Source: Escherichia phage vB_EcoP-101114BS3
Sequence record: MZ234015.1
Reading direction: 5' to 3' (one strand)
DNA length: 64,000 nt
Part shown: one piece after another, positions 1,665 through 51,416 of the stretch
Numbering within the stretch: position 1 is the first letter of the stretch
Layout: the number at the start of each line of letters is the position of its first letter
The notes under the pieces: model-generated
Databases searched by the model: none
What the model was told of the DNA's origin: nothing
Seen by the model: the letters and a program-made list of their open reading frames with translations, nothing else
Translations under genes and position numbers: made by a program

Positions 1665-2078
1665 ATTAATATTTCCTTATATAAATTTAAGATTGTTGCT
1701 CTCTTTGAGCGGTTTGTATACTATATACATTACACTTATACAGATAAGGTTCTATTATACTATAACCTTTTTGGTAGTAGATAATGACAAGTAGTAATGT
1801 ATATATGGTATAGCTAGTAAAGCTATTGCAGGCTTGTATATTGGGCAATCATTGTAACCCTTGCAAGTACCGAAGGGCAGGAGACACCTGCGAGATAAAA
1901 TAGAGAATTAAGGAAATCCTTGATTTAGGTTGTAGGGACTCCTAGGGACTTTGATTCTCTATTTAAAAGAATATTAATTACTTACTACCTAAATAATTAA
2001 CTAACTTACTTAAACCAAACTCAAGAATAATAGATAAAAAGATTATTCCTAAGAAAGCTAAAAAGTAAAGGATATAAG

Positions 2079-2699
2079 TTACCATTCAAGTAAACCTTTA
2101 AAGTTAGTTTGTTCTACTATCCTCTGATAAGGTAAGTTAGATTCTGCTTGTTTGCTTAACACCTCTTGTACTTTATCAGTAATTGAATAATCTTTTTGTA
2201 ATAAAGAAGCTACCCACTCTTTCCTACTTTCCAGTTCTTTTCTAATCTCTTGCAGAGACACAGCTCTGTAATCAATTTGTTCCATAGAAGTACAGAAGTA
2301 TCTCCAATCTCTGATAGTAGAATTATGAGTATGAGCATAGATATTATACTTTCCTCTCATTTCATCAGAGTGAATAGGAATATGAGTTACCCAAAACTCT
2401 TTGTACTTATAATCACCACTGATGTGTCTAAAGACTTTCATCATATCAGGGAGAAGTTCTAATCTGTCATGGTTTCCTAAGACAAGATGTTTCTCTCCTT
2501 TTACTTCAGCGATAATATCAAGTGCATATTTCTCAAACACCCAATCACCTGTAAAGAAAGTTTTATCACGTTTAGTAACATGGTCAAACGCTGCTAAGAT
2601 AGCTTTGTCGTGTTCTTCAATACTACTAAACTTCTTCCTAAAGTTACAGATGTTACGATGGCCTAGGTGACCATCACCTGCAAAATAAACTTCAGCCAT
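2079..2699 (-). CDS. metallophosphoesterase (calcineurin-like phosphatase family)
   Basis: Motifs GDGHLGH, GDW, GNHD, AHTH in canonical order. Confidence 0.75.
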   Translation of the reverse strand: MAEVYFAGDGHLGHRNICNFRKKFSSIEEHDKAILAAFDHVTKRDKTFFTGDWVFEKYALDIIAEVKGEKHLVLGNHDRLELLPDMMKVFRHISGDYKYKEFWVTHIPIHSDEMRGKYNIYAHTHNSTIRDWRYFCTSMEQIDYRAVSLQEIRKELESRKEWVASLLQKDYSITDKVQEVLSKQAESNLPYQRIVEQTNFKGLLEW

Positions 2700-2928
2700 T
2701 CTCGTATGTGTCCTCGTAATATGAGTAGTTGAAGGATTCAGCTTTCGTTTCAGCCTCCTCCCTATCGTCTGTTTCTAAAATAACTCTCCAGCCAAAACCC
2801 TCAGGATACTCAGCCCCTTCGTCTAGCCAGACTTTATATCGTTTAGATAGTGCAACCATCGCAGATGTAATCTCCACTGAGTGACTCTTGTAGGAGGCGA
2901 GATTGTTCATCTGACACCAGTTTGTCAA
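2692..2928 (-). CDS. small acidic protein, paralog of 3427..3642
   Basis: Shared VW(L/F)xE...GW..IL.TDD.EEAE...Y.YYE pattern; start may be internal. Confidence 0.45.
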   Translation of the reverse strand: MTNWCQMNNLASYKSHSVEITSAMVALSKRYKVWLDEGAEYPEGFGWRVILETDDREEAETKAESFNYSYYEDTYENG

Positions 2929-3046
2929 CCTCCTCTTTCAGAGCCATAAGGTCAACAAAGGTTAGTAGCTCATGCCGGTCAGCAATTATTTGGTATTTGT
3001 AATCACTGATGTGCCCTACGGTTTGTGCGACGTAAATATTAGACAT
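2843..3046 (-). CDS. hypothetical protein
   Basis: 67-aa ORF in compact minus-strand operon. Confidence 0.4.
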   Translation of the reverse strand: MSNIYVAQTVGHISDYKYQIIADRHELLTFVDLMALKEEVDKLVSDEQSRLLQESLSGDYICDGCTI

Positions 3047-3270
3047 TATAAGATCTCCCTTTGTTTAGCGTTAATGACTGACATTGCTGTGATTGGATTA
3101 TTTGTTCCGAGATACTCTAGAACAGGTGGACTGCTAACTGGTTTATCAGCCTCCACATAATTCTTAACCTTGCCACCAAGAACCGCTAGAGAAGCCTGAG
3201 CTTCCGCTTCATCATAGTGAATTCGGTCAACTGTTTTCTTTCCAATCCTATAAGTGTGAACGTAAATCAT
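3046..3270 (-). CDS. hypothetical protein
   Basis: 74-aa ORF. Confidence 0.4.
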   Translation of the reverse strand: MIYVHTYRIGKKTVDRIHYDEAEAQASLAVLGGKVKNYVEADKPVSSPPVLEYLGTNNPITAMSVINAKQREIL

Positions 3271-3473
3271 TTAACTTCCTCAATATCAACTAATTCAAAA
3301 CTTCCTATTTCTTCAAGCTTAATAATCTCTTTAACTTTCTCAACAGCTTTAATAGGGTTTTCTTCTTCTACAACTTTACACCCTGATACTTCAAGACTGC
3401 CTGTTCCACGAAGGTATAAATTCAACTTATAAACTACTTTGTAGTATCTCATCGTGCTCCCAATTTCTTTCAT
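3267..3473 (-). CDS. hypothetical protein
   Basis: 68-aa ORF, 4-nt overlap with neighbour. Confidence 0.4.
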   Translation of the reverse strand: MKEIGSTMRYYKVVYKLNLYLRGTGSLEVSGCKVVEEENPIKAVEKVKEIIKLEEIGSFELVDIEEVK

Positions 3474-3642
3474 AATATCCAGAGTTGTAGTTTAGGGCGC
3501 ATTTCTCGGCCTCTTCTATGTCGTCTGTGTTTAGGATATTAACCCAACCACCAACTTCATCAAAACCCTCTTCTACCTCATTGAACCACACGCTGTATTT
3601 CTTCATCTTGATAAGACCCTTCCCCAATCCTTGATGTAACAT
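3427..3642 (-). CDS. small acidic protein, paralog of 2692..2928
   Basis: Shared motif with 2692..2928. Confidence 0.45.
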   Translation of the reverse strand: MLHQGLGKGLIKMKKYSVWFNEVEEGFDEVGGWVNILNTDDIEEAEKCALNYNSGYYERNWEHDEILQSSL

Positions 3643-3778
3643 CGACCATCAACCCACTTGGTCTCTGATTTAAACTTTTGAGAGATTCTTGTTTCACAGT
3701 CTTCTTTACTGTAATCACCAAGAGCATCCATCACCCAAAGAAACAGAGCAATTACAATAGACCAGATTAGAAACTTCT

Positions 3779-4171
3779 TCATCGTATCACCAGAGGCTCT
3801 TCAGAGTACACAGGAGAGGTTATTTCTACCGGAGGTGCTGCTCTAAGGTCATTAAGCCTTACGCCCTTCAGCATACCATCTAGGTGGTCCATTTTAGGGA
3901 TACCTACAGGGAAGTCATCAATCCAAACATCCACAAAGAAACCCAAGCTCTGAGTGACGGAATCCTTCTGAACACCATTGCAAAAGATAACAGGAATATC
4001 TAGACTTGCTGCATCTGCTAGAAGCTCCTCATTTGAATACCCATTAGGTTGAGCAAAACGATAGGTGACAATACGTACATCATGTCCACGAGATTTCATA
4101 AGACCTACAATGTGGGTCCACATCTCTTTGTCCACTGTAAAAGTGTCATCATAATCTAAACCAATATTCAT
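3779..4171 (-). CDS. HAD-superfamily hydrolase-like protein (possible nucleotidase)
   Basis: N-terminal IGLDYDDTFT matches HAD motif I DxDxT. Confidence 0.45.
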   Translation of the reverse strand: MNIGLDYDDTFTVDKEMWTHIVGLMKSRGHDVRIVTYRFAQPNGYSNEELLADAASLDIPVIFCNGVQKDSVTQSLGFFVDVWIDDFPVGIPKMDHLDGMLKGVRLNDLRAAPPVEITSPVYSEEPLVIR

Positions 4172-4182
4172 ATTAGCCTCTT

Positions 4183-4210
4183 AGACAAGAAAAGCCACCC
4201 GAAGGTAGCT
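4183..4210 (-). terminator. terminator-like hairpin (minus strand)
   Basis: AGCCACC-CGAA-GGTAGCT stem-loop (1 mismatch) followed by U-rich tract on minus strand; same sequence family as 855..880. Confidence 0.45.
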
Positions 4211-4455
4211 TATTTATTCTGTGTTTCCAGTTCGCTGATACGAACTTTCAAACCGTTAATCTCAGCCTGAGCAGCTTCTAGTTTAATTAGAGCTTCTTCA
4301 GCGTCAGCTTCTGTTTGAAGAACCGCAGTGGTTAGTTCGTATAAAGCTTGGCGGAGAGAATCTTTTCCCATAGCATGAATCTGTGCAACAAAGAATTGCT
4401 TACCTTCCGTGGTTTCCAAAGTCTCTTTTAATTCTTTAGATGTTAAAGTCATCAT
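4210..4455 (-). CDS. hypothetical coiled-coil protein
   Basis: 81-aa ORF, helical heptad-like sequence. Confidence 0.5.
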   Translation of the reverse strand: MMTLTSKELKETLETTEGKQFFVAQIHAMGKDSLRQALYELTTAVLQTEADAEEALIKLEAAQAEINGLKVRISELETQNK

Positions 4456-4622
4456 TACTCCCTTTCATAAATTTTAAGAACTGTACCGCCATCTGCTTCA
4501 ATCTGAGCAACTACTTCATCGCGCTCTTCATCAGAATAAACCAGTTGGTTGTGAAATTTGCCTGTACTATCTTGGAAATACACATTCCATTTTGGAGCAG
4601 GTTTACGAATCAAATCCATCAT
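4449..4622 (-). CDS. small hypothetical protein (57 aa)
   Basis: Below ORF-track cutoff; AGGAG 8 nt upstream of ATGATG; stop overlaps next start. Confidence 0.35.
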
Positions 4623-4834
4623 TGATCTTTCTCCTCTCGTTCAACCCATGTATGGAAAAGCTCCCCATACACTTTGGCATCATCAAAACGTCCTTCTTCC
4701 TGTGCGAGTTTTTGTTGCTTCAAGCACCATTCAGAACTTTTTACTTCTTCCACTTCCTTGTCTCCTTAAAAAGAACTAATCAATAAGACTAGTTCATTTC
4801 ATAATACGATTCAGCTCTTCCACTGAACTAATCA

Positions 4835-8292: not shown

Positions 8293-9030
8293 TTATGATT
8301 TTTCAGATTCCATTGCTTTAACAATAGCTTTACAGAAACCTGAACGAACAATATCATCCGATTCGCCATCTACTAGAGCGGCAAATTCAAATAACTGGTG
8401 ACGGTAGATGAAATCAGTAGCCCAATCAAGACCGCTCTCACCACGCATGTCGTGCTGGTTAGTGTCCCCCATGCAGAACATCTGAGAGGTTTCACCAAGA
8501 CGTGTCATGATTGAATATGCTTCATCAGGAGTAGTGTTCTGGAACTCATCAACAATCACGATAGCATCGTTGAACGAGCGACCACGTAGATATTCCAGAG
8601 GTACGAACTCAATATTACCATTACCTACTTGACATTCGTAGAAACCTTTACCGTAGCGCTGAGTAATAACATCAACGATTGGCATTAGGTATGGTTCAAA
8701 CTTCTCACGAAGCCCACCGGGAAGTAATCCAAGACTATTACCCATACCAACAGCAGGTCGGCTTAGGATAATCTTCTCAATCTTCCCACTCTTCAGAGCA
8801 TCAATCACTGTAGAAGTGATTACGAAGGTCTTACCACAACCAGCAGGAGCATCTGTGAATACAACCTGTTTGGTTTTAATTGCATCAAGCAGCTCACTCT
8901 GGAATTGGTTCTGAGGTACTACCGGCTTAGCAAGAACTACTTCTTCAAATTCCCGCTTTCCTTTCTTGGTGACGAGAGCTTCACGACGTAATTCTCTCCG
9001 TGATGCTTTCCGAGATTCTCTACGACTCAT
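8293..9030 (-). CDS. phoH: PhoH-like ATPase
   Basis: Walker A APAGCGKT and PhoH-like architecture, 245 aa. Confidence 0.85.
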   Translation of the reverse strand: MSRRESRKASRRELRREALVTKKGKREFEEVVLAKPVVPQNQFQSELLDAIKTKQVVFTDAPAGCGKTFVITSTVIDALKSGKIEKIILSRPAVGMGNSLGLLPGGLREKFEPYLMPIVDVITQRYGKGFYECQVGNGNIEFVPLEYLRGRSFNDAIVIVDEFQNTTPDEAYSIMTRLGETSQMFCMGDTNQHDMRGESGLDWATDFIYRHQLFEFAALVDGESDDIVRSGFCKAIVKAMESEKS

Positions 9031-32193: not shown

Positions 32194-32269
32194 TGGTGCG
32201 CCCTACAGGACTCGAACCTGTAACCAATAGCTTAGAAGGCTACTGCTCTATCCGTTGAGCTAAGAGCGC
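32194..32269 (-). tRNA. tRNA-Arg (anticodon UCU)
   Basis: Hand-folded cloverleaf: 7-bp acceptor with one G-U, D arm GCTC/GAGC, anticodon loop CTTCTAA (U33, UCU, A37), T arm ACAGG-TTCGAGT-CCTGT, encoded CCA. Confidence 0.9.
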
Positions 32270-41692: not shown

Positions 41693-41970
41693 TATTACTA
41701 CTCCTGATAGATGAAAGATTGTTTGTCGTGTGTAGTTACTTAGGCTGATCAACCTTCACTACTCACTATCACCGCTAACTACTTTACATCACTGCTTCAT
41801 TAACGATAATTCAAACTACGATTGCAACTATATATTAAAGGAAAAACATGTCAACCACTTATTTTCAAACTCTTTCATAACTCACTGAATATAAAAGGAA
41901 TTTAATTTACTAAACTTTCTTACTCAGAGATACAGCTTACCAAATAGATGTTATTTTATAACACTTACAG

Positions 41971-42070
41971 AACGGGTAGCAGACCAACGGGATAGATAGA
42001 TGGGTAAGACGTGCCGCATAGGTTAGCCAATGGGTAAGAAGCCTAACGAGGAAGGGGAAACGGGTAGGAT
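41971..42070. repeat. iteron-like direct repeat array 1
   Basis: GGGTA at 41974, 42002, 42032, 42062 (spacing 28-30 bp). Confidence 0.5.
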
Positions 42071-42430
42071 ATAATGTAAGTTAGTTACAGGTAACAGGTC
42101 AGACCATGCGGTAATAAATTACCAGTCAAATTCCTACTCATCAAAAGAAAAAAGAAACGCTGAAAAAAGAAAAGAATAAAAGAAAGAATAAAAATAATAA
42201 CTAAAGTAAACAACTACCAGTCTAATGATACATACATCAATAATCCACTCATGAAACATTAACATAGGTTATTACTATTAAACTTGGGGTAGTGTGAGGA
42301 TTGTTATAATTGCATGGTGTTACCATTACTAACCTCACTATGATAGCCCTTACTATTAGCCCTCTTATTATCACCCCTTAACAGTACATCAGAGTCTAGC
42401 CTTTCATCCTTCCTTAACATGAGTAGAAGA

Positions 42431-42540
42431 AATACGGGTGGGATATTACTGGTTAGATATACATGGGTAAATAATGCATGTGTAATATCAATGGGTAGGG
42501 TATTTATGGGTAGGGATACCACTGGTAGCAGGTAGGGCAA
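42431..42540. repeat. iteron-like direct repeat array 2
   Basis: GGGT(A/G) at 42436, 42465, 42493, 42508. Confidence 0.5.
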
Positions 42541-42706
42541 GGCTTAGAGCTTAAAGGCTGATTGATTTCCTAAAGGCAATTGCATTGGTAATAACCCTTT
42601 TTTAAATGAGGACTCCCCCTTTTTAGGAAACGCGCTCGGAGAGGCTAGGTCCATCCGGTCAAATTGAAATTTTAAACTGTTATATATAAGCATAAGGAAT
42701 AACTTA

Positions 42707-42871
42707 ATGTGGAAATTGAAGATGATTATTCGTCAGATCAAATGTCAACATGAATACTACCCGATACGAATATCAAGAGGTGATGAACGATTACACGCTT
42801 ATTACAAGAGTACATGGAGATGTGCAGACTGTGGTAAGGTGAGGAATAGTAAATGGGTGGATAGGCCTTAA
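42707..42871 (+). CDS. small zinc-ribbon-like protein (54 aa), first plus-strand gene
   Basis: Below ORF-track cutoff; RBS AGGAA 8 nt upstream; C.H ... C..CG pattern like the 32278..32855 family. Confidence 0.35.
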   Translation: MWKLKMIIRQIKCQHEYYPIRISRGDERLHAYYKSTWRCADCGKVRNSKWVDRP

Positions 42872-42992
42872 CATGACATGGCCTTTATGGGTATGCCTTA
42901 ATGTGGGGTAGCCTTTATGAAGTCCCCTTTACTTCAGCGTACATGGGTTTATACATGGGTGGGCCTTTAGATGAGTACGCCTTTATGGGTTG
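42851..42992. repeat. iteron-like direct repeat array 3
   Basis: GCCTTTATGGGT at 42881 and 42979, related copies at 42911 and 42962, ACATGGGT at 42941 and 42953. Confidence 0.5.
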
Positions 42993-44516: not shown

Positions 44517-46058
44517 ATGTCGTTAGATAAAGAAATCTATGAAGCTCTAACTGGAGACAAGTTGAGTATAGAGGAAAAGAAAGCTTTGCTCAATATGTTA
44601 AAAGAAAGGGACCAGTGGAGAAAATATAACAAGATGTTGGCTTTTAAAGCTTACGACTTTCAGAAGAAATTCTATGCAGCAGGGTTGAAGCATCGCTTTC
44701 GATTCCTGTGCGCAGCTAACCGTGTTGGTAAATCTTACAGCGAGGCATACGAGTTTGCTTGTCATGTCACAGGTCGCTATCCAACTTGGTGGACAGGTTA
44801 CAGATTTAATCGACCTATATTGGCTTGGGCAGTAGGGATTACAGGGGACTCTACAAGAAAGGTATTGCAAAAGGAGTTGTTTGGAACACCTATCGGAAAG
44901 GATATGAATCTAATAGGAACAGGTGTTATTCCTCGTGATGCTATCGTATTGGACACGATAGAACGAGATGGGAACAAATTACAGATTGTACAAATTAAGC
45001 ATCAAAACGCGAGAGGCGAGTTTGACGGTTTAAGTACATTAGAGTTCCGTTCTACCCAACAGGGTGAACATACATTGATGGGTGCTACAGTTGATTATAT
45101 TTGGCTGGACGAAGAAGATCCATATGAATCTATGGCAATCTTCTCTCAGTGCGTAACACGTACACTTACAACTAAAGGTTTAGTTACTATTACAGCTACA
45201 CCAGAGAACGGTTTAACAGAGCTGGTGGATAAGTTTATGAAAGGTGAAGGAGATGAGAACACAGGTTCTCTGTATTTCCAGAATGCTTCTTGGTGGGATG
45301 CTCATGTAGATTTAGGTGGACATATCACTGACCAAGATATTAAAGACATGACTGAAGGTATTCCAACATGGCAGTTAGAGATGCGTTCAAAAGGTATGCC
45401 GTTGCTTGGTTCTGGTTTGATTTATGATGTATCAGATGACATGATTAAGTGTGATCCCTTTGAGATACCTGATACGTGGAAACGTGTTTGTGCTATTGAT
45501 ATTGGTATCGATCACCCGACAGCCGCTGTTTGGACAGCATATGATGCTAACACTGATACGATTTATGTTTATGACTGCTATAAAGAAGGTGGGTTTACTC
45601 CGGTGTACCATGCACCAGCTATTAATGGTCGTGGTCAGTGGATTCCAGTTATTCTTCCTCACGATGCCGATAATATTGAGAAGGGAAGTGGTTCGTCTGT
45701 TGCTCAATTCTATAAGAATGCAGGGGTTAATGTACAGAGTGAGACCTTCTACAACAAGATTGGAATGGATGGTAAGAAGAACTTCTTTGTAGAGCCGGGA
45801 ATTACTGATATTCGTGAACGTATGATGTCAGGTCGTTTTAAAATCTTTAACATTGCTTCGTGTGCTAAACTCTTTGAAGAGAAAGCTCGCTATCACCGTA
45901 AGGTTGGCAAGATTGTTAAGGAACATGATGACTTGATGGATGCTATGCGATATTCAGCTTGTTCTGTAACACATCGTGGACGTAGTAAGCATGATGCTAG
46001 TTATGGTAGTTCATCGCTTTATCAAGACAATATTAACAGATGGAATCAGACCTACTAA
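44517..46058 (+). CDS. terL: terminase large subunit
   Basis: Walker A ANRVGKS, Walker B IWLDEED, C-terminal nuclease-like Asp residues; start moved to ATG after GGAGG (ORF track began at TTG). Confidence 0.85.
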   Translation: MSLDKEIYEALTGDKLSIEEKKALLNMLKERDQWRKYNKMLAFKAYDFQKKFYAAGLKHRFRFLCAANRVGKSYSEAYEFACHVTGRYPTWWTGYRFNRPILAWAVGITGDSTRKVLQKELFGTPIGKDMNLIGTGVIPRDAIVLDTIERDGNKLQIVQIKHQNARGEFDGLSTLEFRSTQQGEHTLMGATVDYIWLDEEDPYESMAIFSQCVTRTLTTKGLVTITATPENGLTELVDKFMKGEGDENTGSLYFQNASWWDAHVDLGGHITDQDIKDMTEGIPTWQLEMRSKGMPLLGSGLIYDVSDDMIKCDPFEIPDTWKRVCAIDIGIDHPTAAVWTAYDANTDTIYVYDCYKEGGFTPVYHAPAINGRGQWIPVILPHDADNIEKGSGSSVAQFYKNAGVNVQSETFYNKIGMDGKKNFFVEPGITDIRERMMSGRFKIFNIASCAKLFEEKARYHRKVGKIVKEHDDLMDAMRYSACSVTHRGRSKHDASYGSSSLYQDNINRWNQTY

Positions 46059-49735: not shown

Positions 49736-50791
49736 ATGGCAAATCCAACTTTATTTGTATCTTACGACCAGAATGGTAAAAAACTTTCTTTTGCTAACTG
49801 GATTTCTGTCCTGTCTCCGCAAGACACTCCGTTTGTGTCTATGACTGGTAAAGAGTCTATCAATCAGACTATTTTCAGCTGGCAGACCGATGCTCTGGCG
49901 AGCGTAGATGCTAACAACGCCCACGTCGAAGGCTCTCGTGCTGAAGACGGCGAAATGAAACCGACTGTAATTAAGTCCAACGTTACTCAGATCCTGCGTA
50001 AAGTTGTTCGTGTTTCTGATACTGCTAACACCACCGCTAACTACGGTCGTGGTCGTGAACTGATGTATCAGCTGGAGAAGAAAGGTAAAGAGATTAAACG
50101 TGACCTCGAGAAAATCTTGCTGTCCGGTCAGGCTCGTACCGATATTCTGGCAGACCAGTATCTGACCAACTCTGCAACTGATCCTGCTGTTGTAGGTCAG
50201 AATGATACCTCAGCTGCTCGTAAGACTGGTGCTTTCCAGTTCCTGTGTGCACACAATGGTGTTGCTGGTGGTGTTGTTAAGAAAGAAGATGGTCCTGCTG
50301 ACCCGGATACTGGTGCAGTAACTGTTAAAGTTGCACAGAATGCTTCTAACCCGACTACTAACATCGGTTTTGATGAAGCTGATATCTTTGATATGACTCT
50401 GCAATTATATACCGCTGGTTCTGAAGCAGACATCATCATGATTAACCCTGCTCACGCTAGCATCTTTGCTAAGCTTCAGGAAAACTCTGTTGGCTCTCGT
50501 CAGCGTATCTTTGAGAACACCAAACAGTTCATCTATGAAGTTAACAGCATCACTGACCCGCTGGGCCAGAGCTATAAAATCATCGTTAACCGTTGGATGC
50601 CTGCTGATGCAGTTTACTTCTTCCGCAGCTCTGACTGGACTCAGATGGTTCTTCGTGCTCCGAAACGTACTGAACTGGCGAAAGATGGTTCTTACGAGAA
50701 ATGGATGATCGAAATGGAAGTTGGTCTGCGTCACCGCAACCCGTATGCCTCCGGCGTTCTGTTCACTGCTGCGGGAAAGGTGGCGGCGTAA
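49736..50791 (+). CDS. major capsid protein (zero-frame product)
   Basis: Position after scaffold; strongly biased high-expression codon usage; strong terminator downstream. Confidence 0.8.
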   Translation: MANPTLFVSYDQNGKKLSFANWISVLSPQDTPFVSMTGKESINQTIFSWQTDALASVDANNAHVEGSRAEDGEMKPTVIKSNVTQILRKVVRVSDTANTTANYGRGRELMYQLEKKGKEIKRDLEKILLSGQARTDILADQYLTNSATDPAVVGQNDTSAARKTGAFQFLCAHNGVAGGVVKKEDGPADPDTGAVTVKVAQNASNPTTNIGFDEADIFDMTLQLYTAGSEADIIMINPAHASIFAKLQENSVGSRQRIFENTKQFIYEVNSITDPLGQSYKIIVNRWMPADAVYFFRSSDWTQMVLRAPKRTELAKDGSYEKWMIEMEVGLRHRNPYASGVLFTAAGKVAA

Positions 50792-51315
50792 CAGTAGACA
50801 GTGTGACTGTTAGCCCTGCGTCTTTAGCAAGTCTAGAGACAGGGGCTACTCGGCAGTTCACTGCAAGCGCGGAGAAAAGTGATGGTTCTACCGAAACAAC
50901 TGGCTTTACTTGGTCAGTGACAGGAGGTGGTTCTATCACTCAGTCGGGTTTGTATACTGCTCCGAGTGCGTCTCAATCCACTGATGTATCCATTACTGCA
51001 ACTTTAGAAGGTGTTTCTGGAACAGCAACCATTTCTGAAATTGTTGCTCCTGCTCCTACTATTGTAGCTAAGGGTCCAATTACGGGTAAAACTGGTGGTT
51101 CCTCCACTAATTTCACTACCATGTTTACTGTAACTAATTCTGCTGCTGCGGATTACACGTTTGTTGTAACTCCTACAGAAGCTGGTACAGTAAGTGCAGC
51201 TGGTGCGTTAACCTTAGATGCTGCTGCAAGTGGCGAAGTTACTGTTCAAGCAAGTTTGACAGCTGATCCGTCCATCAATGCAACATGCACTTTTACTGGT
51301 GTAACACCTGCTTAA
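50773..51315 (+). CDS. capsid C-terminal extension via predicted -1 frameshift (Ig-like Big_2 domain)
   Basis: Slippery heptamer G_GGA_AAG at 50773..50779, 10 nt before capsid stop; -1 frame open to 51315 and encodes Big_2-like sequence. Confidence 0.55.
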   Translation, partial: GKGGGVTVDSVTVSPASLASLETGATRQFTASAEKSDGSTETTGFTWSVTGGGSITQSGLYTAPSASQSTDVSITATLEGVSGTATISEIVAPAPTIVAKGPITGKTGGSSTNFTTMFTVTNSAAADYTFVVTPTEAGTVSAAGALTLDAAASGEVTVQASLTADPSINATCTFTGVTPA

Positions 51316-51321
51316 AACTAG

Positions 51322-51347
51322 ACCCTGCCTTCGGGCGGGGTTTTTTC
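51322..51347 (+). terminator. rho-independent terminator
   Basis: 7-bp stem with TTCG loop followed by TTTTTTCGTTTT. Confidence 0.7.
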
Positions 51348-51416
51348 GTTTTAAGACCTATACAAGCCAGTGTGTAATGTATATTCTTTGTCTACATACA
51401 ACTAGGAGGACAATCT

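Follow-up and report, generated by a model that had tools for sequence, protein, structure and literature searches.

Evidence for a programmed −1 frameshift that adds tandem Ig-like domains to the major capsid protein of a Kuravirus-like Escherichia coli podophage

The stretch of DNA analyzed here (the window) comprises 64,000 nucleotides of Escherichia phage vB_EcoP-101114BS3 (MZ234015.1), a Kuravirus-like E. coli podophage; over the region compared, it is 100% identical to Escherichia phage vB_EcoP-101114UKE3 (Suseptimavirus, Gordonclarkvirinae). All of the features described below lie on the plus strand. The major capsid protein gene occupies 49736..50791 and encodes a 351-aa protein of HK97 fold that belongs to the SU10_MCP family (Pfam PF17236, 267 bits against a threshold of 24.1, E = 2.6e-79), and residues 1–351 of this protein match the SU10 major head protein, PDB 7Z45, with an E-value of 5e-222. 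The 3' end of the gene reads ...GCT GCG GGA AAG GTG GCG GCG TAA. G50773 is the third position of a codon of the 49736..50791 frame, so the heptamer GGGAAAG at 50773..50779 is read in the register X_XXY_YYZ, that is, as the −1 shift site G_GGA_AAG, and it is invariant in relatives. Nine nucleotides (50780..50788) separate it from the TAA at 50789..50791 that ends the short, major form of the capsid protein. The −1 frame is without a stop from 50674 to 51315, and in the DNA of the extension the other two frames hold 15 and nine stops. A slip on the heptamer would join 348 aa of capsid protein to the 178 codons of the −1 frame extension (50779..51315, TAA included), for a product of 526 aa. Just beyond the extension is an intrinsic terminator at 51320..51353, with a stem at 51320..51343 of ten pairs (six of them GC), a TTCG loop and a TTTTCGTTTTA tail; the records of SU10 and Privateer also have a terminator annotated at this point. 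A sequence-only reading of the window had placed the slippery heptamer correctly to the base, and its open frame of ~178 aa ending at 51315, its terminator and the length of ~526 aa that it predicted for the isoform are all borne out, as is its statement that the lambda G/GT frameshift uses GGGAAAG (PMC3296357).

The heptamer by itself says little. GGGAAAG occurs four times in the window, where 7.0 ± 2.4 copies would be expected; the motif is not enriched and, being uninformative alone, its frequency was dropped as evidence. Of these copies, just the one in the capsid gene lies in register within a long ORF, three codons from the end of that ORF and with a −1 continuation of 178 codons; the remaining three are in no long reading frame. 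Two other heptamers had been flagged in the open stretch 45445..45792 and were set aside, as we infer that this stretch is an alternative frame of a larger ORF. G_GGA_AAG is known to be highly shift-prone in E. coli (PMC5009743), and the significance of the site derives from its context and conservation, not from the heptamer alone.

Conservation was assessed over 19 distinct Gordonclarkvirinae junction sequences (drawn from 11 IMG/VR loci and from GenBank records), together with Privateer and vB_CsaP_009, which are more distant. All 19 junctions have the heptamer in register, and so do Privateer and vB_CsaP_009, where the capsid protein is 58% identical, the heptamer sits at the same gene end and the extension is a different one (I-set plus Big_2). 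Insertions and deletions between heptamer and stop in the Gordonclarkvirinae junctions are always multiples of three. In the SU10 record, a 1-nt insertion around record position 8420, which may be real or a sequencing error, ends the −1 frame after 11 codons, and PMC9965538 describes this loss as the only one in the group; heptamer and frame are intact in all of the other relatives examined. Among the aligned relatives the extension is homologous at 66%–97% identity, and its dN/dS of 0.19–0.29, at dS of up to 1.5, indicates purifying selection. A protein search with the extension matched 25 close relatives, from which a 22-sequence alignment was built. No full-length capsid-Ig fusion was found among these 25, as would be expected, since gene-calling programs pass over frameshifts.

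The extension matches PHROG 13745 ("Ig domain containing protein") with an E-value of 1e-80. The match to Big_2 (PF02368) is barely above its cut-off when the 204-aa ORF is searched (24.0 bits versus 22.8, E = 3.7e-5), and the two halves of the extension searched separately fall under it, at 18.8 and 17.2 bits. Scores are higher in relatives (34.5 bits for KarlSchell, 48.9 for SE131). An AlphaFold2 (AF2) model of the extension made from the 22-sequence alignment has a pLDDT of 96.7 and is all-beta with two domains; the single-sequence model, at pLDDT 55.7, was unusable. In the model, a Gly-Gly-Gly linker at the start of the extension precedes Ig-like domain 1 (approximately residues 4–88, 50788..51042), which is followed by Ig-like domain 2 (approximately residues 91–178, 51049..51312). 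The top Foldseek match of this model in the PDB is the tandem Big_2 pair of LigA (8gyr, E = 1e-10, TM 0.58), and it also matches the 894-aa major capsid protein of phage Paul (E = 2.5e-21). The profile of the extension further matches the Ig-like repeats of a teneurin-like protein (E = 6e-8) and residues 378–459 of T5 pb6 at an E-value of 0.02. On the strength of the model, the extension can be assigned with high confidence to two tandem Big_2-type Ig-like domains. The Big_2 signature cited in the sequence-only reading, VTVSPASLASLETGATRQFTASA...TWSVTGGGSITQSGLYTAP, is indeed present, but it had been taken to mark one Ig-like domain rather than two.

These features very probably reflect programmed −1 frameshifting by the ribosome at the 3' end of the gene for the major capsid protein, giving rise to a minor capsid-Ig isoform. 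Most ribosomes would read GCG GGA AAG GTG GCG GCG TAA and stop there, yielding the HK97-fold capsid protein of 351 aa, while a minority would slip back by one base, with the P-site GGA re-pairing on GGG and the A-site AAG on AAA, and would continue through GGT GGC GGC GTA... to 51315. The resulting isoform would consist of the capsid protein minus its last three residues, the glycine linker and the two tandem Ig-like domains. This isoform should co-assemble with the short form as a minor component, its Ig domains presumably displayed on the outer face of the prolate head, where they probably provide weak adhesion to cell-surface carbohydrate. If the same heptamer in lambda G/GT is a guide, where the efficiency is about 3.5% as quoted in PMC9965538, slipping may occur at a few percent. 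Given the 715 subunits of the SU10 capsid, slipping at 3%–10% would put some 20–70 long copies in each head, with a predicted mass of ~55 kDa beside ~38.5 kDa for the short capsid protein. The predicted tryptic N-terminus of the extension, GGGVTVDSVTVSPASLASLETGATR, starts right after K348 and could be obtained only from the shifted product. The junction between capsid and extension is predicted to read ...FTAAGKGGGVTVD..., and a peptide GGGVTVDSVTVSPASL... is the predicted marker of a fusion, as opposed to an Ig protein that is started separately.

What this work establishes directly is the shift signal with its register and conservation, the constraint on the extension as coding sequence, the lack of an initiation signal for it, and its fold; the signal for a capsid −1 frameshift adding Ig-like domains is real and well supported. 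The programmed frameshift put forward in the sequence-only reading is thus supported: the heptamer is conserved, the extension is under purifying selection, there is no start with a Shine-Dalgarno sequence, and the same shift has been published for close relatives (PMC4281155, PMC7881722, PMC9965538). It is accordingly not new for the Kuravirus-like group. The frameshift was described in 2014 for SU10, citing phiEco32 (PMC4281155), in 2021 for Privateer (PMC7881722) and in 2023 for the whole Kuravirus-like group, with isoforms of ~500–550 aa, in an analysis that included the phage under study, by its match to vB_EcoP-101114UKE3 (PMC9965538).

Production of the long form and its presence in virions are suggested by the literature on these relatives. 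Privateer gives two bands on SDS-PAGE, and its minor long form was found in virions by mass spectrometry (PMC7881722). The mass spectrometry of SU10 lists "CDS 9+10, 55.4 kDa" (PMC4281155), and its cryo-EM map has no density for the Ig protein (PMC9509320); SU10 is not a fair test of the Ig isoform because of the insertion that closes its −1 frame. For YF01, SDS-PAGE is reported to have shown no larger band (PMC9965538), a point, like the missing density in SU10, against the long form. The GenBank records of Paul and YF01 annotate a joined CDS, and the Paul record carries the note "Frameshift at GGGAAAG", for which it cites phiEco32 (PMID 18294652).

At the 5–9-nt spacing downstream of the heptamer no stimulatory structure is seen, except for a weak, invariant helix of 7 bp. 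A stimulatory RNA structure or an upstream Shine-Dalgarno-like element is frequent at −1 frameshift sites, yet neither is obligatory, and lambda G/GT is not known to need one. The 7-bp helix is AU-rich and lies at 9-nt spacing; being invariant it offers no covariation, and it competes with a much stabler hairpin. Extending its lower stem (50780..50819) was tried and rejected, as changes in ECBP2, StefiGeyer and AnnaHegner break the pairing and are uncompensated. No Shine-Dalgarno-like motif was seen upstream of the heptamer on reading the sequence, and the 76-nt region around the slip site folds no better than its shuffles (z = 0.26). That region includes the stem-loop proposed by the SU10 authors (CTGCTGC/GTGGCGG, PMC4281155), which contains the slip site; we have not adopted it because a helix there would melt before the ribosome arrives.

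A well-supported hairpin lies at 50805..50858 within the coding sequence of Ig-like domain 1. It has a ΔG of −26 kcal/mol and a z-score of −3.94, and none of 200 shuffles folds equally well. Across 16 distinct sequences, pairing holds in 94.3% of cells. Covariation is limited to one pair that appears as GC, UA and AU without mismatch and a second that appears as GC and UG with one break. The hairpin lies 25 nt 3' of the heptamer, and with a start at 25–28 nt it is not at the canonical stimulator spacing. No description of it was found in the frameshift papers on this group. We regard it as a candidate distal modulator; that it could tune how much of the long capsid protein is made relative to the short one, and that the C-terminus of SU10-type capsid proteins is a recurrent recoding hotspot, is a tentative suggestion that we think rather doubtful.

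Could the Ig ORF instead be a separate gene, started at the GTG at 50803 (170 aa), either independently or through termination-reinitiation by ribosomes coming off the capsid gene, and encoding a free decoration protein that binds noncovalently? It is annotated separately in the RefSeq and GenBank records of the phage under study and in those of most relatives. The GTG is only 12 nt past the stop of a very heavily translated capsid gene, so coupling is physically possible, and the authors of the SU10 cryo-EM study regarded gp10 as possibly a loosely bound minor capsid protein (PMC9509320). However, no Shine-Dalgarno sequence precedes any of the four candidate ATG, GTG or TTG starts of the −1 frame in 50674..50960, the GTG at 50803 among them, and this GTG is not kept: it is ATA in 172-1 and pEC-N1203, and GTA in ECBP2, KarlSchell, YF01 and others. 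A separate initiation site for the Ig frame is what the sequence-only reading had named as speaking against a frameshift. The annotated Ig starts in relatives are at nonhomologous positions, up to ~140 nt downstream, and database gene calls for the ORF vary from 110 to 254 aa. Between heptamer and GTG the −1 frame stays open, and the residues encoded there, V4–D7, are invariant in the −1 frame of relatives. In the AF2 model, strand A of Ig-like domain 1 (residues 6–12) begins upstream of the GTG (residue 9), and a protein started there would be cut into that strand. The restriction of indels between heptamer and stop to multiples of three is a further point against a separate gene, which we judge improbable.

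Less probable again is a relic signal, in which heptamer and frame persist and the long isoform is not incorporated in virions or has no role, as is apparently the case in SU10. That phage has lost the open −1 frame and yet is viable with a uniform capsid, and the comparable 10B product of T7 is dispensable. Against this, the low dN/dS over an appreciable dS speaks for sustained selection on the extension, heptamer and frame are preserved in the remaining relatives examined, some of which (KarlSchell, YF01 and Paul) have an enlarged extension, and no other member of the group is said to share the SU10 loss. Transcriptional slippage, in which RNA polymerase would change the frame in the transcript, has nothing specific in its favor beyond the short G3 and A3 runs at the site, and we give it almost no weight. 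Such slippage needs homopolymer runs of ~7 or more bases (reviewed in PMC5009743). The longest run at the site is three, and transcriptional slippage is rejected for lack of a long run; the motif, moreover, matches a tandem-slippage heptamer exactly and is correctly placed relative to the codons. The frameshift on the ribosome is the reading that we retain.

For this genome, the only practical result is an annotation correction. RefSeq lists PQC43_gp012 as the major head protein and PQC43_gp013, started at its unsupported GTG, as an "Ig domain containing protein"; these entries would be replaced by the short capsid protein and a joined 526-aa product. Unlike those of Paul and YF01, the records of this phage lack the joined product, and the same correction applies to most Kuravirus-like records. 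A specialist would find nothing surprising in a capsid frameshift, and the case is one more instance of a known theme, in which recoding puts Ig-like domains on virions and slip efficiency sets the stoichiometry. Much as T7 10B is used for display, this C-terminal attachment point might serve in engineering these coliphages, which are therapeutic candidates.

Compared with its Kuravirus-like relatives in Gordonclarkvirinae (phiEco32, SU10 as first described, Paul and YF01), the phage shows no mechanistic difference: the gene is the same, GGGAAAG stands at the homologous codon, the shift is in the −1 direction, and the homologous Big_2 extension ends at the same terminator. The size of the extension does differ, with 178 aa here versus 459 aa in KarlSchell and ~545 aa in YF01 and Paul, whose long isoforms are 892 and 894 aa, respectively (PMC9965538). 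The Proteus phage Privateer (Grimontviridae) likewise combines an SU10-type capsid protein, a terminal G_GGA_AAG, two Ig-like domains and then a terminator; its stop, however, directly follows the heptamer (a 0-nt spacer versus nine here), and its extension is nonhomologous. Gene 10A/10B of T3 and T7 is again a podophage case in which a −1 shift near the end of the capsid gene yields a minor, C-terminally extended subunit, although the capsid family is unrelated at the sequence level, the slippery site is different and the T7 extension is not Ig-like. Condron et al. are said to have found in 1991 that the T7 frameshift needs distant 3' sequences. The T3 10B extension is Ig-like (PMC5009743, PMC9965538). 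Lambda G/GT shares the identical G_GGA_AAG and the same host translation apparatus; the gene is a different one, its product is a tail assembly chaperone absent from the virion, and there is no Ig domain.

The same end can be reached without recoding. Salmonella phage SE131 has an in-frame 586-aa fusion of capsid protein and Big_2, joined at the homologous ...NPYASGIL... point of the SU10-type capsid protein, and obtains its stoichiometry from two capsid paralogues, one short and one long; Salmonella phage 7-11 has an in-frame major head protein of 585 aa. In T4, Ig-like domains are likewise found on the capsid surface, but on Hoc, a separate decoration protein that binds the capsid. Different clades appear to add Ig-like domains via G_GGA_AAG, via G_GUA_AAG/A_AAG, or by in-frame fusion and duplication. 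In Aeromonas LAh-like phages, the apparent Ig attachment is via the noncanonical G_GUA_AAG/A_AAG site and is not annotated. Another clade has A_AAA_AAG at the same place, with a −1 extension of 42 aa.

The major capsid protein gene (49736..50791, plus strand) encodes a 351-aa protein with a 267-bit match to Pfam SU10_MCP and a full-length match to the SU10 major head protein (PDB 7Z45; E 5e-222). Its neighbours encode an SU10-type portal, scaffold protein, adaptor and tail fibre, and the 1.7-kb capsid region is 100% identical to that of Escherichia phage vB_EcoP-101114UKE3 (Suseptimavirus, Gordonclarkvirinae). The gene ends ...GCT GCG GGA AAG GTG GCG GCG TAA. The slippery heptamer GGGAAAG (50773..50779, plus strand) lies in the X_XXY_YYZ register of the capsid gene, with the TAA stop (50789..50791) 9 nt past it. 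The -1 frame is free of stops from 50674 to 51315, and a slip at the heptamer gives 348 + 178 = 526 aa. Directly after this extension stands a terminator-like hairpin with a T-run (51320..51343, plus strand), in agreement with the terminator proposed by the sequence-only reading, whose heptamer position, open -1 frame to 51315, 178-aa extension and 526-aa isoform are all correct. It is very likely that a -1 frameshift produces this 526-aa capsid-Ig isoform, an interpretation supported by register, conservation, dN/dS, the lack of a start signal and fold, and by earlier reports in relatives.

The heptamer by itself is no more than chance would supply, as four copies of GGGAAAG are observed in the window versus 7.0 expected; it is the context that carries the weight. 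One of the four, the capsid copy, lies in register within a long ORF, three codons before its end and with a long -1 continuation, and the remaining three are in no long frame. Two different heptamers in the stretch 45445..45792 were also flagged by the scan and were set aside on the inference that a larger ORF is read there in another frame. In its two remaining frames, the extension DNA is interrupted by 15 and 9 stops. Comparison with five relatives puts the dN/dS of the extension at 0.19–0.29 at dS up to 1.5, marking it as translated and constrained; the value for the capsid body is 0.09–0.10.

RefSeq treats the same region as a separate "Ig domain containing protein" gene, PQC43_gp013 (50803..51315), initiated at a GTG at 50803. 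That GTG lacks a Shine-Dalgarno sequence, and a search for the independent start that the sequence-only reading had set against its own proposal found no Shine-Dalgarno sequence before any ATG, GTG or TTG in the -1 frame (50674..50960). The position of the GTG is ATA or GTA in many relatives, the starts annotated in different relatives are non-homologous, and database gene calls for the ORF range from 110 to 254 aa. Moreover, extension residues V4–D7, which lie 5' of the GTG, are invariant and lead into the first beta-strand (residues 6–12) of the predicted fold. The RefSeq start is thus unsupported, and translation by frameshift is the reading we retain. The adjacent PQC43_gp014 (about 51285..51377), a 30-aa "hypothetical protein" overlapping the last part of the extension and crossing the terminator hairpin, is probably a spurious gene call.

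Taken together, Pfam, PHROG, profile, AF2 and fold matches identify the extension as a GGG linker followed by two Ig-like domains. The Big_2 identity first suggested for it holds (24.0 bits for the whole Ig ORF versus a threshold of 22.8, and the AF2 fold), but the single domain does not: the Pfam match resolves into two weak half-hits, and AF2 with 22 sequences predicts two all-beta domains at a pLDDT of 96.7, versus 55.7 without an alignment. PHROG 13745 ("Ig domain containing protein") matches the extension at E 1e-80, and a profile built from six extensions finds Ig-like repeats in a teneurin-like protein (E 6e-8; residues 4–75) and residues 378–459 of T5 pb6 (E 0.02; extension residues 93–174). 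Among solved structures the fold is closest to a tandem Big_2 stretch in Leptospira LigA (8gyr; E 1e-10, TM 0.58), and among viral proteins to the 894-aa product annotated as major capsid protein in phage Paul (E 2.5e-21).

Among 22 Gordonclarkvirinae junctions gathered (19 distinct), GGGAAAG occurs at the homologous codon in all, and the spacer between heptamer and stop varies by 3-nt indels only, preserving both frames. Privateer and vB_CsaP_009, of a different family and with capsid proteins 58% identical to this one, share the heptamer, placed directly before their stop, whereas the 169 aa that follow in their -1 frame (I-set plus Big_2) are not homologous to the extension here. Salmonella phage SE131 instead carries tandem capsid paralogues of 312 aa (1985..2923 of its locus) and 586 aa (3001..4761), the latter with Big_2 domains joined to it in frame at the homologous site, ...NPYASGIL..., where this phage frameshifts; the pair represents another genetic route to two capsid forms. 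The 585-aa major head protein of phage 7-11 is also among the fold matches of the extension, and these natural fusions in SE131 and 7-11 show the capsid-Ig polypeptide to be the selected product.

G_GGA_AAG is indeed the lambda G/GT site (PMC3296357), as the sequence-only reading stated, and PMC5009743 counts it with the heptamers that are highly prone to shifting in E. coli. No canonical stimulator was found around the slip site, a region that folds no better than shuffles. The sole helix at 9-nt spacing, UAACAGU/ACUGUUA, is invariant and hence beyond covariation testing, and its ACUGUUA is also claimed by a far more stable hairpin (50805..50858, plus strand) in the part that encodes the first Ig domain. 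This hairpin begins 25 nt 3' of the heptamer, versus a usual spacing of 5–9 nt, and has a dG of -26 kcal/mol (z -3.94; 0 of 200 shuffles fold as well). In an alignment of 16 distinct sequences, its stem positions are paired in 94.3% of cells. One pair, joining a synonymous Ser third position with the second position of a variable codon, occurs as GC (6), UA (6) and AU (4) with no mismatch, and a second as GC (12) and UG (3) with one break. Because these sequences share ancestry and also served to derive the structure, we regard the hairpin as probably real; it was not found described in the literature examined on these phages. A slip efficiency of a few percent would be expected, with perhaps 20–70 long-form copies among 715 subunits, the number reported for the SU10 capsid. 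As T7 10B, T4 Hoc and the Ig-domain studies reviewed in PMC5009743 suggest by analogy, the Ig domains may be displayed on the capsid exterior and mediate weak carbohydrate adhesion.

The capsid frameshift is a correct rediscovery of a feature already known for the group. Mirzaei et al. (2014; PMC4281155) recognised GGGAAAG in the gene for the SU10 major head protein and put forward a fusion to the Ig-like CDS10 "as in phage phiEco32"; their MS results include a 55.4-kDa "9+10" species. In Privateer, Corban et al. (2021; PMC7881722) described the same signal, saw two bands, detected the minor form by MS, and regarded the feature as conserved in phiEco32-like phages. The 2023 YF01 paper (PMC9965538), which lists 101114UKE3 in the Kuravirus-like genomes, described two capsid protein forms across that whole group, including the heptamer, the shift to the -1 frame and isoforms with an Ig-like domain, some 500–550 aa long. 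A joined CDS is annotated in the GenBank records of Paul and YF01, the former noting "Frameshift at GGGAAAG" and citing PMID 18294652. What remains is that the record of this phage, like most of the group, annotates two separate CDSs, together with two modest leads, the distal hairpin and the diverse recoding solutions at the SU10-type capsid C-terminus.

In SU10 itself, the Ig protein left no density in cryo-EM (PMC9509320), and the YF01 paper points out a TAG 39 nt downstream in the -1 frame (PMC9965538). Alignment reveals a single-base insertion in SU10 (KM044272), CACTGTCTACTG versus CAGTGT-GACTG, at about 2605..2612 of its locus, homologous to about 50800..50806 here and just past the slip site. 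Through the insertion, the -1 frame meets a stop after 11 codons and the Ig ORF shifts to the 0 frame, behind the capsid stop, which explains both the TAG and the uniform appearance of the capsid in cryo-EM. The 2014 MS table (PMC4281155) gives "9+10" 22 peptides and 50.3% coverage, and gp9 (the major head protein) alone 23 peptides and 78.1%; by our arithmetic the residues covered are about the same, so the entry is no proof of extension peptides. SU10 is thus a probable natural loss of the frameshift product, and is no evidence against frameshifting in other phages.

Other capsid loci were also seen. In Aeromonas phage LAh_8 (loci L007 and L025; about 3910..4190) and three IMG/VR contigs (L022–L024; 2410..2930), the capsid gene ends CTG AAG GTA AAG GCG (or CCC) TAA and the -1 frame runs into Ig-like domains (Big_2, 119 bits, in L022; I-set in LAh_8, whose record gives the extension as a "putative tail protein" of its own). 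This clade lacks a canonical heptamer and has only G_GUA_AAG or A_AAG 3 nt before the stop; it probably uses an unannotated, non-canonical -1 frameshift. IMG/VR contig 3300033688_000038 (2421..2555) has a dnaX-type A_AAA_AAG 3 nt before the stop of its SU10-type capsid gene and a 42-aa, Pro/Val/Lys-rich -1 extension. Aeromonas phage APT65 (1069..3927) has three genes in tandem, each of about 310 aa and annotated as major head protein, and tblastn finds four matching places in its record; no frameshift signal was found at the end of the last of the three.

Window and GenBank record are circular permutations of each other (window position = record position + 42398), so that the record ends fall inside the window at about 42398/42399. 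They lie in a stretch of about 1.2 kb (about 41750..42990), between minus-strand genes and the plus-strand structural genes, that has no ORFs of at least 80 aa. An 801-bp probe over this junction was not found in one piece in near-identical records. A single tRNA-Arg (anticodon TCT; 32194..32269, minus strand) matches the one tRNA given for this phage in the 2023 group table (PMC9965538).
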